From NCBI RefSeq assembly GCF_988243305.1, contig NZ_OZ547136.1: a stretch of 64,000 nt of DNA; one strand, 5' to 3'. The position numbers were made by a program, and so were the translations under genes. The notes below the pieces were generated by a model that did no database searches, was not told where the DNA came from, and saw only the letters and a program-made list of their open reading frames with translations. Positions 2,971 through 31,611 of this stretch are shown one piece after another. How positions within the stretch are numbered: position 1 is the stretch's first letter; each line of letters starts with the position of its first letter.

Positions 2971-5397
2971 ATGATGAAAATCCATACCACAGAGGCGCTC
3001 ATGAAGGCTGAAATCAGCCGTAGAAGTCTGATGAAAACCTCCGCACTTGGCAGTCTTGCGCTGGCAAGCAGTGCTTTCACTCTGCCATTTTCCCAAATGG
3101 TCCGAGCGGCAGAGGCACCGGTAGAAGAGAAAGCGGTCTGGAGTTCCTGCACCGTTAACTGCGGGAGCCGCTGTCTGTTACGTTTGCATGTGAAAGATGA
3201 CACCGTGTACTGGGTGGAGTCTGATACGACAGGTGACGACGTCTACGGTAATCATCAGGTTCGGGCATGTTTACGCGGGCGCTCTATCCGCCGACGGATG
3301 AATCATCCTGACAGGTTGAAATATCCCATGAAGCGCGTCGGCAAGCGCGGTGAAGGTAAATTTGAACGGATAAGTTGGGATGAAGCCCTGGATACCATCA
3401 GTGATAATCTTCGGCGGATCCTTGAAGATTACGGCAATGAGGCTGTACATGTCCTGTACGGAACAGGCGTAGATGGCGGAAACATCACCAACTCGAACGT
3501 CCCGTACCGTCTGATGAACTCTTGCGGTGGTTTTCTCAGTCGCTATGGCAGCTACAGTACCGCTCAAATCAGTGCCGCAATGAGTTATATGTTCGGTGCC
3601 AATGATGGCAACAGCCCGGATGATATAGCCAATACGAAACTGGTCGTTATGTTCGGAAATAACCCGGCAGAAACCCGGATGAGCGGCGGTGGTGTCACTT
3701 ACTACGTCGAGCAAGCCCGAGAACGTTCAAACGCACGCATGATCGTCATCGATCCACGTTATAACGACACTGCTGCCGGGCGTGAAGATGAATGGCTGCC
3801 AATTCGCCCAGGCACCGATGGCGCACTGGCCTGTGCGATTGCCTGGGTACTGATTACTGAAAACATGGTCGATCAGCCATTTCTCGACAAATATTGTGTT
3901 GGTTACGATGAAAAAACGCTGCCCGCCAACGCACCACGTAACGCGCATTATAAAGCCTATATTCTGGGCGAAGGGCCTGACGGCATAGCTAAAACGCCGG
4001 AATGGGCAGCAAAAATCACCAGCATCCCGGCAGAAAAAATTATCCATTTGGCACGAGAGATCGGTTCAGCAAAACCTGCTTATATTTGTCAGGGTTGGGG
4101 GCCACAACGACACTCCAACGGCGAACAAACGTCCCGCGCTATTGCCATGCTTTCCGTTCTCACCGGTAACGTCGGCATAAACGGCGGCAACTCAGGTGTA
4201 CGCGAAGGTAGCTGGGATCTGGGGGTAGAATGGTTCCCGATGCTCGAGAATCCTGTTAAAACGCAGATTTCCGTCTTTACATGGACAGATGCCATCGACC
4301 ATGGTACGGAAATGACCGCGACCCGTGATGGTGTTCGTGGAAAAGAAAAACTGGATGTCCCCATCAAGTTTTTATGGTGCTACGCCAGTAACACATTGAT
4401 CAATCAACATGGCGACATCAATCACACCCATGAGGTGCTTCAGGATGACAGCAAGTGCGAGATGATTGTTGGCATTGACCACTTCATGACTGCCTCGGCT
4501 AAGTATTGCGATATCCTGTTGCCCGACCTGATGCCAACAGAGCAAGAAGACCTTATCTCTCACGAATCTGCCGGGAATATGGGCTATGTGATCCTCGCCC
4601 AACCCGCAACCTCAGCAAAATTTGAACGCAAACCCATCTACTGGATGCTGAGTGAAGTCGCCAAACGCTTAGGACCAGACGTTTATCAAACCTTTACTGA
4701 AGGCCGCAGTCAGCACGAATGGATCAAATATCTCCATGCGAAAACGAAGGAACGTAACCCTGAGATGCCCGACTACGAGGAGATGAAAACGACCGGGATC
4801 TTTAAGAAAAAATGCCCGGAAGAACACTACGTCGCTTTCCGCGCATTCCGTGAAGATCCACAGGCAAACCCGTTGAAAACACCTTCGGGGAAAATCGAAA
4901 TTTATTCTGAACGACTGGCGACGATTGCGGATACCTGGGAATTGAAAAAAGATGAAATTATTCATCCCCTTCCTGCGTATACCCCAGGTTTTGATGGCTG
5001 GGACGATCCCCTGCGGAAAACCTATCCACTGCAGCTAACGGGCTTCCACTACAAAGCGCGTACCCACTCCAGCTACGGCAATATTGATGTGTTACAGCAG
5101 GCCTGCCCACAAGAGGTGTGGATCAACCCTATTGATGCTCAGGCACGCGGTATCCGTCATGGCGATACCGTGCGGGTATTTAACAATAATGGAGAAATGC
5201 TGATTGCCGCAAAAGTGACTCCGCGTATTCTGCCTGGCGTTACCGCCATCGGGCAAGGTGCGTGGCTTAAAGCGGATATGTTTGGTGACCGGGTCGATCA
5301 CGGCGGCAGTATTAATATTCTGACCTCTCACCGCCCTTCACCGCTGGCAAAGGGAAACCCGTCGCACAGCAATCTTGTCCAGATCGAAAAGGTTTAA
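2971..5397 (+). CDS. ynfF: Tat-exported molybdopterin oxidoreductase catalytic subunit YnfF, tandem paralogue of YnfE
   Basis: 808-aa ORF with twin-arginine motif SRRSLMKT and CTVNCGSRC cluster. Collinear similarity to the upstream ORF is visible by eye. The start could be one codon downstream (MKIHTT). Confidence 0.95.
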   Translation: MMKIHTTEALMKAEISRRSLMKTSALGSLALASSAFTLPFSQMVRAAEAPVEEKAVWSSCTVNCGSRCLLRLHVKDDTVYWVESDTTGDDVYGNHQVRACLRGRSIRRRMNHPDRLKYPMKRVGKRGEGKFERISWDEALDTISDNLRRILEDYGNEAVHVLYGTGVDGGNITNSNVPYRLMNSCGGFLSRYGSYSTAQISAAMSYMFGANDGNSPDDIANTKLVVMFGNNPAETRMSGGGVTYYVEQARERSNARMIVIDPRYNDTAAGREDEWLPIRPGTDGALACAIAWVLITENMVDQPFLDKYCVGYDEKTLPANAPRNAHYKAYILGEGPDGIAKTPEWAAKITSIPAEKIIHLAREIGSAKPAYICQGWGPQRHSNGEQTSRAIAMLSVLTGNVGINGGNSGVREGSWDLGVEWFPMLENPVKTQISVFTWTDAIDHGTEMTATRDGVRGKEKLDVPIKFLWCYASNTLINQHGDINHTHEVLQDDSKCEMIVGIDHFMTASAKYCDILLPDLMPTEQEDLISHESAGNMGYVILAQPATSAKFERKPIYWMLSEVAKRLGPDVYQTFTEGRSQHEWIKYLHAKTKERNPEMPDYEEMKTTGIFKKKCPEEHYVAFRAFREDPQANPLKTPSGKIEIYSERLATIADTWELKKDEIIHPLPAYTPGFDGWDDPLRKTYPLQLTGFHYKARTHSSYGNIDVLQQACPQEVWINPIDAQARGIRHGDTVRVFNNNGEMLIAAKVTPRILPGVTAIGQGAWLKADMFGDRVDHGGSINILTSHRPSPLAKGNPSHSNLVQIEKV

Positions 5398-6026: not shown

Positions 6027-6881
6027 ATGGGAAATGGATGGCATGAATGGCCACTGGTTATCTTTACCGTATTGGGTCAATGCGTAGTAGGCGCGCTGAT
6101 TGTTAGCGGAATTGGCTGGTTCGCCGCCAATAATGACGCAGACCGTCAGCGTATTGTCCGTGGCATGTTTTTCCTCTGGCTGTTGATGGGCATCGGGTTT
6201 ATTGCCTCTGTCATGCACCTGGGATCGCCACTGCGAGCGTTTAACTCGCTGAATCGAATCGGAGCTTCTGGTCTGAGTAACGAGATTGCTGCCGGTTCAA
6301 TATTTTTTGCCGTTGGCGGATTATGGTGGCTGGTGGCGGTCATCGGTAAAATGCCGCAAGCGTTGGGGAAACTCTGGTTACTTGTCAGCATGGCGCTCGG
6401 CGTCATTTTCGTCTGGATGATGACCGGCGTGTATCAAATCGACACCGTGCCAACCTGGCATAACGGTTACACTACGCTGGCTTTCTTCCTGACAGTATTG
6501 TTGAGCGGTCCAATACTTGCTGCCGCAATTCTGCGGGCAGCCCGCATTACATTTAATACCACACCCTTTGCCATCATTAGCGTTCTGGCGCTGATCGCTT
6601 GTGCCGGGGTGATTGTGCTGCAAGGTTTGTCTCTGGCGTCTATTCACTCATCCGTACAACAAGCCAGCGCACTGGTACCAGATTACGCCTCCTTACAGGT
6701 CTGGCGTGTGGTATTGTTATGCACAGGTCTAGGATGCTGGCTTTGTCCGCTCATTCGTCGCCGTGAACCTCACGTTGCCGGACTTGTTCTGGGGCTAATC
6801 CTCATACTTGGCGGTGAGATGATCGGGCGTGTGCTCTTTTATGGCCTGCACATGACGGTAGGAATGGCTATTGCAGGTTAA
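6027..6881 (+). CDS. ynfH: Membrane anchor subunit (DmsC paralogue)
   Basis: ATG at 6027 (MGNGWHEWPLVIF...) lies 1 nt after the ynfG stop. The product is a 284-aa polytopic hydrophobic protein. The longer 5787 start in the ORF track overlaps ynfG and is rejected. Confidence 0.93.
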   Translation: MGNGWHEWPLVIFTVLGQCVVGALIVSGIGWFAANNDADRQRIVRGMFFLWLLMGIGFIASVMHLGSPLRAFNSLNRIGASGLSNEIAAGSIFFAVGGLWWLVAVIGKMPQALGKLWLLVSMALGVIFVWMMTGVYQIDTVPTWHNGYTTLAFFLTVLLSGPILAAAILRAARITFNTTPFAIISVLALIACAGVIVLQGLSLASIHSSVQQASALVPDYASLQVWRVVLLCTGLGCWLCPLIRRREPHVAGLVLGLILILGGEMIGRVLFYGLHMTVGMAIAG

Positions 6882-27819: not shown

Positions 27820-28034
27820 AACCCCCCCCCATTTTCACAATCAGCAACAAGAATATTTTTAGCGTCATTCAGCGACCGCGTTGCGATGTATCGGATACAT
27901 TCCAGGGCGAACTGTGTCCGGTCTTTCTGTTCTTCTCCCTGCGCAAGCTCTGCAGTGCATTCAATATCGATAAGCGCGTGCATCAGCGTAGTGAGCGCGG
28001 CGGCTGCTGCGTCCGGTGTGGTTTTATTGCACAT
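27792..28034 (-). CDS. Hypothetical protein (80 aa)
   Basis: ATG at 28034 is preceded by AGGAGG (MCNKTTPDAAAAALTTLMHALIDIECTAELAQGEEQ...). It overlaps the icd-like 3' end by 11 nt. Confidence 0.55.
   Translation of the reverse strand: MCNKTTPDAAAAALTTLMHALIDIECTAELAQGEEQKDRTQFALECIRYIATRSLNDAKNILVADCENGGGLCVMIVLIP
27822..27830. repeat. Homopolymeric C9 (plus) / G9 (minus) tract
   Basis: Read directly: a CCCCCCCCC a. It lies in the 3' end of the 80-aa ORF and in the RBS position of the 73-aa ORF. Confidence 0.95.
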
Positions 28035-28224
28035 GGCACACCTCCTGACGAATACGGGCGGCGAATACAGCAACACAACCGGACGGGCAACGGCTACGCG
28101 CTTCGCGTTCCGTCCAGGCGGTTACGTGGATGATTTGAGATTCTCCGGCACTTAGTGCCAGAAAACGCCACACAAAGGCCGTTTGTGTGTGTATAAGGCG
28201 TGGTATATGATTTACGGCAACCAT
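28024..28224 (-). CDS. Icd-like (host cell-division inhibitor family) small protein
   Basis: ATG at 28224 is preceded by AGGAG. The 66-aa product ..FVWRFLALSAGESQIIHVTAWTEREARSRCPSGCVAVFAARI.. fits the Icd-like pattern (aromatic core, EREAR, FAAR). It is the only credible part of the 344-aa track ORF. Confidence 0.6.
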   Translation of the reverse strand: MVAVNHIPRLIHTQTAFVWRFLALSAGESQIIHVTAWTEREARSRCPSGCVAVFAARIRQEVCHVQ

Positions 28225-28312
28225 AACGGCTCCTAGTTTACGTTGTTGGTTAGACGCCCCGTATGTGTTCCCAGCACTGCGGGGCGTTGATTTTTGTGTA
28301 ATGGCAAGTACA

Positions 28313-28358
28313 ATGGTAATTACCATGTAGGTATAGTAATGAAGGGTAATTACCATGT
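28313..28358. promoter_or_regulatory. Two copies of GGTAATTACCATGT exactly 30 bp apart (first within perfect 14-bp palindrome ATGGTAATTACCAT): putative operators in a divergent control region
   Basis: Copies at 28315-28328 and 28345-28358; the second covers the start codon of the Arc-like gene. A TATAGT -10-like hexamer at 28332-28337 lies between them. Confidence 0.6.
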
Positions 28359-28528
28359 CAACACCATTAGAAAAACGTTCGCCTCCATACCAAATGCGAT
28401 TACCGGAAGACTTCAGAGCGCAGCTAGAAGAAGCAGCTAAGGCCGATGGCGACACATCTTTAGCCACTTGGATTAAACGCGTTCTCCGCAAAGAATTACA
28501 GCAACGCGGCATAGAGCCAAAAGGTTGA
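28355..28528 (+). CDS. Arc/Mnt-family ribbon-helix-helix DNA-binding protein (57 aa)
   Basis: Read manually because it is below the track cutoff: MSTPLEKRSPPYQMRLPEDFRAQLEEAAKADGDTSLATWIKRVLRKELQQRGIEPKG. The beta-strand (YQMRLP) plus two helices parallel P22 Arc (PQFNLRWPREVLDLVRKVAEENGRSVNSEIYQRV). It is one of only two plus-strand genes in the island. Confidence 0.7.
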   Translation: MSTPLEKRSPPYQMRLPEDFRAQLEEAAKADGDTSLATWIKRVLRKELQQRGIEPKG

Positions 28529-28549
28529 ATTTCAGAAGGAGATAAAATA

Positions 28550-28702
28550 ATGAACTGGCTGTTACATACCCTCCCAGGTCGCATTCTCATTGCACTAATT
28601 ATTTTATGGATTTTGTACCAATTCGGTTTTTTCGATTCGCTTTGGAAGCCTGACTGTTCCGTTAACCCTGGCGATGTACTGAAAGGCTGTAAAAATGGCT
28701 GA
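28550..28702 (+). CDS. Small single-pass membrane peptide (50 aa)
   Basis: AGGAGA RBS lies 6 nt upstream of the ATG. Product MNWLLHTLPGRILIALIILWILYQFGFFDSLWKPDCSVNPGDVLKGCKNG* has one TM helix and a two-Cys C-terminal tail. It is followed by two hairpins (28705-28719, 28735-28749). Confidence 0.6.
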   Translation: MNWLLHTLPGRILIALIILWILYQFGFFDSLWKPDCSVNPGDVLKGCKNG

Positions 28703-29057
28703 TCAGGGTTACTCCCTGTAATGCCTTTAACTGGCCCTCTTAAAGAGGGTTGGTTATCTTCGCAGCTCTCTACGTTTTTCGTCGGAACCTCTGAACCTAA
28801 GCAGTGTTGATGTTCAGGAGAACCCGAATACTGTTCGTGTTCGTTGCTCGCCAATTCTCGCGTTTCGCGATAATCAAAATGATTCAATGGGTTGAGATGT
28901 CCGTACGTTAAACGTACGCGGTTAATTTGTACATGCGAATTTCGTCGGCTCAAATTCTGCGCAACCCTGCTTGAGTTATGCAAATAGCACGCGGCTAACT
29001 CACAAGGATTTGAGCGCCCCCAAACGGGGGAGCGCAAAATTTTAGGCATAAGACGCA

Positions 29058-29771
29058 TCAGCGAATCTCCAACACTGACGATGAAGTGATCAGGCTGGCG
29101 AACGCATCCATACGGCGGGCAACCTCACGCACCGCATCGCCTGGACTCATGTCATTACGCACCGCCTCATTAAAGGCCGCCTGTTCGATTTTCTGCATCA
29201 CTACCAACAGCCCCAATTGCTGTTCGTCTGCGGTACCGCGTTCACCATCAGACAAACCAGCCACGCGGTTTTCAGCGCGGGCCAGATTGATGTAATGGTG
29301 CCGTTGTGCGCCCAGAGCTTTTAATCTGTCGCGGCTTTCGTGATAGCCAGGCAGGTACTCACGGCGGATAGGTTCTGCGGCGCGGCGCTTAGTGAATGCC
29401 TTCGTAACATCCAGTTTGAACTGGTTAATACGCTCAGGATCACGCCCTCGGGTGATACGCAGCAGATAGTCGAGCTGCGGCTCATTCAGCAGATAACTAA
29501 TCTCAGGACGCCCACGCTTTCGGCCGGATTTTCCCGATTTCAAATCGGTTAATTCCTTGAGTGACTGACGAGGCAGTGATCCCAGCTCGCGCAATCTGCT
29601 CTGGTGCGATTTAATCGTCGCGCTTAAGCTTTCATGTTGTATTCCGGCTCGCTCTGAAATAACGCGGGAATCGATACGCGGCTCCGATTTGTGATTAATT
29701 AAAATATCGCTCTGGCTGGCTTCAGGGCGAACGAATCCCCGCCCACGTTCTGGCGTATATTCAATCTTCAT
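29058..29771 (-). CDS. Phage regulatory protein, tentatively Rha/antirepressor-like
   Basis: 237 aa. The N-terminal region IDSRVISERAGIQHESLSATIKSHQSRLRELG resembles the Rha-type HTH region. The functional assignment is weak. Confidence 0.6.
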   Translation of the reverse strand: MKIEYTPERGRGFVRPEASQSDILINHKSEPRIDSRVISERAGIQHESLSATIKSHQSRLRELGSLPRQSLKELTDLKSGKSGRKRGRPEISYLLNEPQLDYLLRITRGRDPERINQFKLDVTKAFTKRRAAEPIRREYLPGYHESRDRLKALGAQRHHYINLARAENRVAGLSDGERGTADEQQLGLLVVMQKIEQAAFNEAVRNDMSPGDAVREVARRMDAFASLITSSSVLEIR

Positions 29772-29828: not shown

Positions 29829-30017
29829 TTAATGAACTGCCTTGCAGCTATCCTTCCAGGCCAGAACCTCGGATAAAGACCAGCCAACGGAACGACCGCC
29901 AAGTTTACGACGTGATGGGAATTGTCCGGCCTTTTCCAGGCGGTAGCGACACGTACGGCTAAGGCCGGTTAGTTTTTCGCATTCTTTTTCACGTATAAAC
30001 CGATCAGTGCTTAACAC
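29829..30017 (-). CDS. alpA: AlpA-family regulator / excisionase-like protein
   Basis: 62 aa with a GTG start after AAAGGGGG. ..IREKECEKLTGLSRTCRYRLEKAGQFPSRRKLGGRSVGWSLSEVLAW is the classic AlpA/Phage_AlpA signature. Confidence 0.88.
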   Translation of the reverse strand: MLSTDRFIREKECEKLTGLSRTCRYRLEKAGQFPSRRKLGGRSVGWSLSEVLAWKDSCKAVH

Positions 30018-30166: not shown

Positions 30167-30200
30167 AAAGGCATAAAATATTGTTTCATGCCTTTTTTCT
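30167..30200 (+). terminator. Plus-strand intrinsic-terminator-like hairpin in the int-alpA spacer
   Basis: AAAGGCAT-13 nt-ATGCCTTT is followed by TTTCT on the plus strand, antisense to the island's main transcription direction. On the minus strand it lacks a T-run. Confidence 0.45.
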
Positions 30201-30381: not shown

Positions 30382-31611
30382 TTATTTTCTTCTGGCTACT
30401 GGTAGCGTGGTTACGTTTTCATGTGTTCCCGCCAGTATCCCTAACCGCTCCGTCCACATATCCAGCGCATTGCGTTTAGCATCCAGATAACGGGAATGAT
30501 TATAAACTCGCTGCATTCCTGGCATCTGGTGGCCTGTAAGCTGCTCCACGACATGCGGATCAACGCCTAAATCGTTCAGCATGGTTGTAAAGGTGCGCCG
30601 GATGTCATGCAGTGACCAGTGAGGATGATTAAGCCTCCTGTGCGCTAATCTTCCATACTGCGATACGCTGGCCTCCTGTTTCACTTCCCCCAGCAATAAG
30701 CCCGTGTGCCTGTTCTGCTCCACCAGCTGCGTGACGAACGGCAGGATCGCTTCCGGTATGGGCCGGAATATTGCGACCTTCGTTTTGCTGTGCTCCTTCG
30801 GAACGGTCCATAGCATTTCCGTAAAATCCCACTCCCCGATCTCCGATAACCTCAGTTCTACCGTTCTGGCTCCGAAGACAATCAGGAGGCGGATTAACGC
30901 GACGTAGTAAGGGGAGAATATTTTTTTGTCCAGTGCCTGCAATAATTCGCCAAGTTCTTTGTTACTTAAGACACGTTCGCTTATATCCGGTTTTTTCCCA
31001 ACGTCCGCCACGTTCAGATCGTCCAGAACGTTGCTGATTGCATAGCGCCGCCTACGGCAGAACTTAAGCGCCTGTTTGCACGCCTGTAGCACGAATCCGG
31101 CAGTAACAGGCGTTCGCTTTGCCACCTGGTCAAAACAGGCCAGCCAGTGCCGTAGCTCGCATTTATCCAGCGGCATAGCACCAATCTGCTGTATTACGTG
31201 ATTATTAAGTCGCCTTTTCAGGGCGATATAATCCACGCGGTTTTCCTTTACGTAATACTCAAGCCAGTAGGTGAGCGCATCGCCAACCGTTACGGGCTTT
31301 AACGCTTCCTGTACGGTGTAATTCATCTCATGACGTGGATTTTTCCCCTCAGCCAGCCATGTGCGACACTGTGCGGCTTTTTCCCTGGCTGCTTTCAGGC
31401 TCAGATCAGGATAACTTCCCAGCTTAATGCGTTCGGGTCGTGTCTCCCTTCCCGTTCCGGCCCTGTATGTGAAATACCAGGTCAATTTCCCTGATGTTAA
31501 ATATTTCACGCTCAGGTTTCCGCCATCACTATAAAACGTGTTTTTCTCCGCTGGCTTACCATGAAGTTTCCTTAGCAAGGTATCGCTCAGTTTGTTCATT
31601 GCTCTGCTCAC
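30382..31611 (-). CDS. int: Tyrosine recombinase/integrase, P4-type (DUF4102 arm-binding N-terminus)
   Basis: 409 aa. The N-terminal ..LSVKYLTSGKLTWYFTYRAG..IKLGSYPDLSLKAAREKA.. is typical of P4-like integrases. Catalytic residues lie in ..HDIRRTF.. and ..HQMPGMQRVYNHSRY. GTG start at 31611 (SD GAGGGGG), or ATG at 31599. Confidence 0.92.
   Translation of the reverse strand: MSRAMNKLSDTLLRKLHGKPAEKNTFYSDGGNLSVKYLTSGKLTWYFTYRAGTGRETRPERIKLGSYPDLSLKAAREKAAQCRTWLAEGKNPRHEMNYTVQEALKPVTVGDALTYWLEYYVKENRVDYIALKRRLNNHVIQQIGAMPLDKCELRHWLACFDQVAKRTPVTAGFVLQACKQALKFCRRRRYAISNVLDDLNVADVGKKPDISERVLSNKELGELLQALDKKIFSPYYVALIRLLIVFGARTVELRLSEIGEWDFTEMLWTVPKEHSKTKVAIFRPIPEAILPFVTQLVEQNRHTGLLLGEVKQEASVSQYGRLAHRRLNHPHWSLHDIRRTFTTMLNDLGVDPHVVEQLTGHQMPGMQRVYNHSRYLDAKRNALDMWTERLGILAGTHENVTTLPVARRK

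Follow-up and report, generated by a model that had tools for sequence, protein, structure and literature searches.

What keeps the replication and packaging genes of a Gram-negative phage satellite quiet? For phage-inducible chromosomal islands (PICIs) of Gram-negative bacteria, the global repressor has been called "unclear" (PMC6092414). We consider this question for an island carried on contig NZ_OZ547136.1 (assembly GCF_988243305.1), within a stretch of 64,000 nucleotides that we refer to as the window. Our focus is on positions 28,225 to 28,702, where a leftward replication operon headed by an icd-like gene faces a rightward gene for a 57-amino acid (aa) Arc-like protein of the ribbon-helix-helix (RHH) type. 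We propose that the head of this replication/packaging operon is probably a compact control cassette with three promoters and two layers, an RHH repressor and an antisense RNA.

The first layer is organized around two putative operators, O1 and O2 (Table 1). The 14-mer GGTAATTACCATGT occurs twice, at 28315 and 28345, as an earlier sequence-only reading had noticed; a pattern search finds no other exact copy in the 64-kb window. Allowing up to 2 mismatches raises the count to 4, where 0.37 is expected; no shuffle in 100 attains this number. A repeat search also recovers the two copies, both as a 17-nt direct repeat (94% identity) and as a 12-nt perfect inverted repeat. The earlier placement of the first copy within a perfect palindrome is confirmed: the palindrome is O1. 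Likewise, the second copy overlaps the start codon of the 57-aa open reading frame (ORF), whose ATG stands at 28355.

Two predicted promoters share these operators. P_L, which would drive the leftward operon, is a near-consensus sigma-70 promoter with a predicted start near 28326. P_R, the promoter of the RHH gene, has a predicted start near 28321, and its -35 shares bases with the terminator U-tract of the candidate antisense RNA described below. The sequence-only reading had pictured a simple divergent geometry; the inferred starts, 28321 on the plus strand and 28326 on the minus strand, make the promoters overlap face to face instead. The -35 of P_L, TTGACA, is the reverse complement of bases within ATGTCAA at the start of the RHH gene. 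O1 covers the last 2 nt of the P_R -10 together with the start sites of both promoters. O2 fills the spacer between the -35 and -10 of P_L, overlaps the -35 by two bases (28356-28357), and also covers two elements of the RHH gene, its Shine-Dalgarno (SD) sequence and its ATG. With O2 in the P_L spacer and O1 on both starts, the placement is that expected of a repressor that shuts P_L and regulates its own gene; the RHH gene has two palindromes in its own promoter region, 30 bp apart, one on the -10/+1 and one on the SD/ATG, in keeping with autoregulation.

This architecture is conserved. Across diverged loci, TTGACA is found at P_L in 30 of 31, and a -10 with A at its second and T at its sixth position follows at 16-18 bp in 29 of 31. 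A TAnAAT-type P_R -10 abutting O1 is kept in class-A loci. The operators hold a fixed position relative to these promoter elements in some 30 diverged loci, with 30-31 bp (about three helical turns) from centre to centre in the relatives, and the sequence between them is otherwise variable.

Operator position is kept, and operator sequence changes with the N-terminal arm and beta-strand of the protein. In the protein class KRSP(Q/P)(Y/F)QMRL, all 16 loci read in the register of the window have the core GGTAATTACC; the variant cores GGTAAGTACC, GGTAACGACC, and GGTAACTACC are also found in this class. Proteins of the class KTDQYQ(I/L)RL are paired with TGTAATTACA in 8/8 loci beginning MS, and a clear palindrome was not seen in two Pantoea loci of the class (L053 and L056). 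The Pasteurellaceae class KS(Q/T)QYQ(I/L)RL goes with (A/T)GTAATTACA, the class KRSPQFPMRL with GGTATATACC or GGCGTATACC, and the class NPPFQFRL with GTGTCA(T/A)TACAC (GTGTCAnTACAC). The operator thus tracks the protein in at least 4 classes, and direct recognition predicts such pairing. That the twin palindromes are operators of the RHH protein, as the sequence-only reading had suggested, is very probable; binding to O1 and O2, with repression, is well supported by these comparisons.

The 57-aa ORF itself is a genuine gene, and its product is probably of the RHH type, as had been claimed. Homologues form 93 clusters, nearly all of 56-58 aa, that come from Enterobacterales, Pasteurellaceae, Aeromonadales, and Orbales. 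In PHROG, the protein matches family 228, "Arc-like repressor" (E 1.5e-6), and its sequence fits the RHH pattern: a beta-strand YQMRL and the helices EDFRAQLEEAAK and SLATWIKRVLRKELQ. An AlphaFold2 monomer model (predicted local distance difference test score 76) has helices at residues 18-31 and 36-50. A profile search of the PDB returns designed helical repeats and a weak match to AmrZ (E 0.89) only. The copy in the related island of Escherichia coli O157:H7 is 100% identical and has no RefSeq annotation.

This omission has a counterpart on the other strand. A minus-strand frame of 344 codons (28024-29058) spans the RHH gene, the 50-aa ORF that follows it, and the spacer up to the stop of a Rha-like gene, and its ATG overlaps that stop (TGATG). 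In O157 and E2865, the RefSeq pipeline PGAP has an "Icd-like protein" pseudogene on the strand opposite the RHH ORF and makes no call for the RHH gene itself; the pseudogene frame lies at 6347-6940 in L001, 4379-4972 in L002, and 2699-3214 in L072. If this long frame were the real gene, the RHH ORF would be spurious, which we consider exceedingly improbable. Stops interrupt the long frame in 14 of 34 homologous loci, against an RHH frame that is open in all 34; the RHH family keeps a constant length at about 60% identity; and a promoter, an SD sequence, and operators would make no sense within a coding region. We therefore dropped the minus-strand ORF as a gene. The pseudogene call looks like an artefact on a shadow ORF and appears to be systematic.

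Downstream of the RHH gene lies a 50-aa hydrophobic ORF. It is an orphan, with 2 clusters only in 5.8 billion proteins and no family match in profile searches of Pfam, NCBIfam, and PHROG. One could read the pair as a toxin-antitoxin system in which the RHH protein is the antitoxin and this small membrane peptide the toxin: some database entries name RHH homologues "HicB family antitoxin", and RHH antitoxins are common among the fold matches. The pairing does not hold across loci. The O157:H7 island is without the 50-aa ORF (homology to the window stops at 28524), EcCICFT073 and locus L070 have an unrelated basic 57-aa ORF in its place, and in nearly all of 66 loci the RHH gene is by itself, adjacent to alpA or int. 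For want of a conserved adjacent toxin gene, we rejected this reading as very improbable. The sequence-only reading also held that these two are the only plus-strand genes of the island, which is plausible: the other plus-strand ORFs are antisense to annotated or Pfam-supported genes on the minus strand.

The second layer was overlooked in the sequence-only reading. A candidate cis-antisense RNA of about 77 nt is situated between the operators and the icd-like gene; it would be transcribed toward the RHH gene from a putative extended -10 promoter inside the icd-like coding region. We aligned 40 non-identical loci, with codon counts taken over 38. In the -10 hexamer (TAnnnT), the T, A, and T are invariant (40/40), and 36/40 loci have a G two bases ahead of the hexamer, at -14. 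Seven bases 3' of the -10 comes an invariant A, at 28219 in the window and opposite icd-like codon 2. These bases fall in icd-like codons 2-7, where the peptide is variable. Codon 6 specifies 7 different amino acids and has T as its third base in 38/38; the same count holds for the third-base T of codon 2, for A at position 2 of codon 5, and for A at position 1 of codon 7. Constancy of wobble bases under a variable peptide argues for a constraint on the DNA, and the constrained bases match a rightward extended -10 promoter.

The RNA would fold into two stem-loops. SL1 presents an anti-SD sequence in a 12-nt loop, GCUCCUAGUUUA, and SL2 is a GC-rich intrinsic terminator followed by a U-run. Over the SD, ATG, and codon 2 of the icd-like mRNA, its complementarity to the antisense RNA is complete. 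On the plus strand, the RNAalifold consensus has 21 pairs at -24.3 kcal/mol, and compensatory changes are seen in 14 of these pairs; on the minus strand, it has 8 pairs at -6.75 kcal/mol. This strand specificity arises because many G.U pairs turn into A.C mismatches on the minus strand. Paired cells amount to 97%, compared with 35-49% when partners are slid, and none of 500 shuffles reaches the observed covariation. A single pair illustrates the pattern: pair 15-33 of SL1 is GC in 21 loci, AU in 14, and CG in 4. The window RNA alone folds at -33.5 kcal/mol by RNAfold (z -5.1). In the complementary mRNA leader, the SD is displayed in a loop that mirrors the anti-SD loop; predicted loop and mirror loop together form the arrangement typical of loop-loop antisense recognition.

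From the alignment we built a covariance model, which scores 69.9 bits at the window and also recovers loci outside its seed, namely EcCICFT073 (60.2 bits) and the Pasteurella element Pmp8 (55.4 bits). In a genome scan, 58 of 66 loci that carry an RHH relative have the element, one copy per cassette and always on the RHH strand; wherever the distance was measured, it lies about 60 nt upstream of the RHH gene. Rfam has no relevant family, either for the whole window at gathering score or for 27900-29100 at E up to 10. A C4/CI-type identity was rejected, as no C4 match appears in the latter interval even at E 10. A minus-strand leader, an attenuator, or a terminator bypassed by AlpA was rejected as well: both the structure and the T-run belong to the plus strand. 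With a putative promoter of its own opposite the target leader and a conserved loop and terminator structure, the predicted RNA has the features expected of an antisense regulator.

Could the hairpin and its T-run be only a terminator or insulator, for instance against stray rightward transcription into P_R, leaving control to the RHH protein alone? The hairpin with its conserved T-run does stand directly upstream of the P_R -35, and expression of the RNA is a prediction from sequence. We nevertheless consider a terminator alone unlikely. It would not account for the invariant extended -10, 7 nt before an invariant A and on wobble positions of a variable peptide, and it would have no need of a second, co-varying hairpin that presents an anti-SD.

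A further terminator-like hairpin lies on the minus strand inside the icd-like ORF (28169-28189; CACACAAACGGCCTTTGTGTG then GCGTTTTCTG), with its right arm overlapping the would-be -35 of the antisense promoter. It is absent from one homologue compared by eye, and we treat it as due to chance.

Table 1. Coordinates of the predicted control elements and of the genes around them (window numbering).
Feature	Position	Strand	Details
P_L, leftward operon promoter	28361-28333	-	-35 TTGACA 28361-28356; 17-bp spacer; -10 TACTAT 28338-28333; promoter-scan score 10/12
P_R, RHH promoter	28287-28314	+	-35 TTGATT 28287-28292; 16-bp spacer; -10 TACAAT 28309-28314; promoter-scan score 9/12
14-mer copies	28315-28328 and 28345-28358		GGTAATTACCATGT; start-to-start 30 bp
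O1, putative operator	28313-28326		perfect 14-bp palindrome ATGGTAATTACCAT
O2, putative operator	28343-28358		AGGGTAATTACCATGT; core GGTAATTACC at 28345-28354
RHH (Arc-like) regulator gene	28355-28528	+	57 aa; unannotated in RefSeq copies of the O157:H7 island
Antisense RNA promoter, extended -10 (predicted)	28204-28211	+	G 28204; TATGAT 28206-28211; within icd-like codons 5-7
Candidate cis-antisense RNA	28219 to ~28296	+	~77 nt
SL1	28219-28251	+	12-nt loop bearing anti-SD
SL2	28253-28288	+	GC-rich intrinsic terminator; U-run 28289-28295
icd-like gene	28024-28224	-	66 aa; SD AGGAG 28234-28230; first gene of the operon; predicted antisense RNA target
50-aa hydrophobic orphan ORF	28550-28702	+	strong SD AAGGAG; variable cargo outside the conserved cassette
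alpA	29829-30017		AlpA Pfam 61.8 bits
int	30382-31611		next to alpA at the right end of the island

Does this cassette decide when the island is induced? The sequence-only reading had made the RHH protein the master switch and had proposed that a helper-phage product inactivates it. As a single master repressor, the protein would be the counterpart of Stl in other islands. The operator positions, within the P_L spacer and at the start site, suit a repressor, the ORFs of the regulatory region include no CI-, LexA-, or Stl-type protein, and a global repressor is "unclear" in the field's own account, as cited above. The experimental record assigns the decision to AlpA, described in the PICI literature as the master regulator of Gram-negative PICIs. 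In EcCICFT073, which bears the same cassette in an equivalent form, AlpA is indispensable, and over-expressing it is enough, with no phage present, to set off excision and replication (PMC6092414). In EcCIEDL933, alpA is required too, and published data tie induction and transfer to a tail-supplying helper phage; helper phages act by raising alpA transcription. No RHH operator is found near the alpA promoter by pattern search with up to 2 mismatches, and the predicted RNA layer would not be removed by a protein antirepressor. A sole master repressor that a helper phage inactivates is therefore unlikely. Since AlpA is necessary and its over-expression sufficient, the cassette would be a brake rather than a trigger.

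We envision the following mechanism. P_L would drive the leftward operon, from the icd-like gene through the helicase, SSB, and PerC genes. The RHH protein, made from the opposing and overlapping P_R, would bind O1 and O2 as dimers or dimers of dimers, and its occupancy would shut the strong P_L while limiting its own synthesis from P_R. The antisense RNA, produced constitutively, would pair with any leftward transcript and block translation of the icd-like gene; by coupling and polarity, this block would lower expression of the genes downstream. Together, the 2 layers would keep the operon low, both when the island is integrated and after its entry into a new cell. AlpA would still start induction: AlpA-dependent transcription from upstream could run antisense through the RHH gene into the operon, bypassing P_L and out-titrating the antisense RNA. 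We infer this read-through purely as the most economical link between AlpA and the operon.

A bolder version of this proposal, which we put forward tentatively and with more doubt than confidence, extends it to the whole group. The RHH (or YlcI/YnfO) gene and the antisense RNA may be the missing immunity/repressor module of Gram-negative PICIs and related P4-like satellites. AlpA would then act by read-through, possibly antiterminated, that silences the repressor, swamps the RNA, and bypasses the operators, and not via the operon's own promoter. If so, leakiness of the cassette would explain why cf-PICI (capsid-forming PICI) capsids are packaged without an inducing phage.

The combination of a small repressor and a countertranscript is familiar from plasmid copy-number control. 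In pMV158 (CopG and RNAII) and R1 (CopB and CopA), a very small repressor, RHH in the case of CopG, likewise acts at the promoter of a replication operon, and a short, constitutive countertranscript that ends in an intrinsic terminator pairs with the translation-initiation region of the first essential gene, as is predicted here (PMC4485353, PMC5717011). In the same manner, the 2 layers might act mainly after excision or entry and not while the island is quiescent like a prophage, allowing a burst of replication in a naive cell and then damping it. We hold this as possible while leaning against it. The operon under control is a replication operon, and the cassette is also found on plasmids and ahead of other cargo. 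However, unlike copG and copB, the RHH gene has its own opposing promoter and is not co-transcribed with the replication genes; the host is an integrated phage satellite, normally in single copy, whose cycle is started by the activator AlpA. By Rfam, the antisense RNA has no sequence homology to RNAII or CopA. Copy-number control is compatible with a two-layer brake rather than exclusive of it.

Several points weigh against the two-layer cassette as we read it. The family assignment of the protein is faint in some searches: Pfam Arc scores 14.3 bits (E 0.038), under its cut-off of 20.4, and NCBIfam YlcI_YnfO_N (NF041551) scores 18.7 bits (E 1.4e-3) against a cut-off of 30. The AlphaFold2 monomer is without the N-terminal beta-strand. 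Foldseek matches in the PDB are nearly all RHH proteins (AmrZ, Arc, CopG, ParG, and NikR), all at E >1; the match to AmrZ has a root-mean-square deviation of 1.3 A over 38 columns. The covariation of operator and protein reflects only about 4-5 independent specificity switches, so it is suggestive and not statistical. Promoter strength varies: in the O157:H7 copy (L001, ~6300-6320), the P_L -10 reads TGCTAT, with the A at the second position changed to G, which should weaken P_L in that island. Both production of the antisense RNA and binding of the RHH protein are read from sequence features. The loci share ancestry, and some of the conservation could be hitch-hiking; against this concern, flanking alignment columns are only ~59% identical. 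No AlpA site, and no motif common to the alpA upstream region and the control region, was found. Finally, induction of EcCICFT073 by AlpA over-expression alone means that the cassette can be overridden and is not the decision point.

Phage immunity regions offer a second set of comparisons. In the immI region of phage P22, the RHH repressors Arc and Mnt act on palindromic operators in overlapping, opposed promoters, one of them in a -35/-10 spacer, and the small antisense RNA sar targets the ribosome-binding site of the gene under control. The sequence-only reading had drawn this analogy, which fails on one defining point: P22 immI controls the antirepressor gene ant, whereas no antirepressor operon is under control here, and P_L leads into the icd-like/replication operon. 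The Rha-like gene lies on the other side of the control region and not downstream of P_L. Moreover, immI has 2 RHH proteins; here there is one, which is sub-threshold for Pfam Arc. In phage P1, the C4 immunity RNA precedes icd. The candidate RNA resembles the C4 RNAs of P1 and P7 and the CI RNA of P4 (the Rfam C4 family) in that a small RNA controls, here putatively, an icd-led operon of a phage or satellite. It differs in its origin: those RNAs arise by processing of the sense leader and have their sites of action downstream, and the RNA here would come from the opposite strand.

Among chromosomal islands, a comparison can be drawn with Stl (Rpr) of the Staphylococcus aureus pathogenicity islands and other Gram-positive PICIs: there, too, a regulator gene next to int faces the replication/packaging operon and is presumed to silence it (PMC6092414). 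Stl is a larger helix-turn-helix repressor that is inactivated by helper-phage proteins, unlike the 57-aa RHH protein with its predicted RNA layer and induction through AlpA. Another comparison is with the YlcI/YnfO family, whose members have an RHH-like sequence pattern and, in EcCICFT073 and other E. coli PICIs, occupy the same position behind the antisense-RNA cassette, facing an icd-like gene; the window protein is under the cut-off of this family, as noted above. EcCICFT073 reads int, alpA, a 59-aa RHH-like gene of the YlcI/YnfO family, the antisense-RNA element, and the Icd-like gene. Its RHH-like gene has twin repeats of its own (GGTGTGGCCCAC twice); the 2 proteins are 24% identical and their operators differ. 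In other E. coli PICIs, a 101-aa YlcI/YnfO protein stands at the RHH position.

The cassette is widespread. Of 5,426 complete E. coli genomes, 1,191 (about one fifth) have a match to the 351-bp region; in 484, the match extends over at least 80% of it and takes in the RHH gene. The leftward cargo differs among loci and includes Icd-like proteins, primases, and others. An 812-aa primase and a 91-aa Icd-like protein (loci L008 and L052) share the N-terminus MA(D/G)TQH(N/T)QT(R/H)PKFT. The first ~14 codons thus travel with the cassette, which places the recombination boundary within the coding region of the first gene. Plasmids carry it as well: an RHH-like gene (WP_012600012.1) and the antisense-RNA element are found on E. 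coli pPEC408_4 (L071, 3471-3817) and on a Klebsiella pneumoniae IncR plasmid (L075), and an RHH relative occurs in ~120 plasmid records. One plasmid cassette precedes a hypothetical gene, a WYL-domain protein, and a BREX system. In Photorhabdus (L034-L038; ~2630-2940 and 3850-4160), 2 RHH genes 1.2 kb apart each follow their own antisense-RNA element; this tandem could represent adjacent satellites or a duplicated control module. Pasteurella phage Pmp8 (L076, OR544139, 15.3 kb) encodes a primase, a terminase, an excisionase-like regulator, and the antisense-RNA element, with an RHH gene 79% identical to that of the window. Deposited as a phage, it looks from these genes like a packaged capsid-forming satellite.

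The cassette looks like the repressor layer thought to be missing from Gram-negative satellites. It is present in both experimental prototypes, EcCICFT073 and the probable EcCIEDL933, and in the packaged Pasteurella element. If functional, it would provide a concrete and testable account of satellite quiescence, might explain why capsids are produced at a basal level, would supply a mechanism by which related satellites are incompatible with or immune to one another, and would serve as an engineering handle for PICI-based delivery vehicles. It is also easily missed, with the RHH gene masked in RefSeq by a spurious antisense pseudogene and the antisense RNA outside any Rfam family. The literature that we covered on a PICI RHH repressor, a PICI antisense RNA, and YlcI/YnfO does not describe the cassette; this coverage is incomplete and an earlier description is possible.

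The surrounding island extends leftward from int and alpA through the control region and the replication genes to the genes for capsid, S78 protease, portal, head-completion, connector, HNH, TerS, and TerL. By this gene content (int, alpA, replication, and capsid genes), it classes as a cf-PICI of the EcCIEDL933 type. No tail gene is present among the ten ORFs scanned, a set that excludes the 15.2-17.5 kb stretch. The start of the minus-strand operon at 28224, as given in the sequence-only reading, is borne out: the icd-like ORF has an AGGAG SD, and NCBIfam phage_ICD_like recognizes it at 64.7 bits, over a cut-off of 25. Translational coupling is suggested by an overlap between its stop and the ATG of the following gene (28034). 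Behind it come a DUF4222 gene, a RepA/AAA_25 helicase, SSB, and PerC. Identity to the O157:H7 island at roxA/pepT is 90-100% for the regulatory and replication genes, except for one small ORF at 51%. EcCIEDL933, the published cf-PICI prototype, comes from the E. coli O157:H7 serotype, and the O157:H7 island with the same cassette is probably EcCIEDL933.

Between alpA and the RHH gene lies the Rha-like gene (29058-29771), with a sub-threshold match to Pfam Phage_pRha (25.8 bits). Only its last 16 codons are present in the O157:H7 island (L001, 6893-6940), and the PICI at L069 has a BRO-N protein instead. The position is a variable slot for antirepressor-like genes. In the gap between int and alpA, a hairpin at 30167-30200 (AAAGGCAT...ATGCCTTT, then TTTTCT on the plus strand) resembles a terminator that faces away from both genes.

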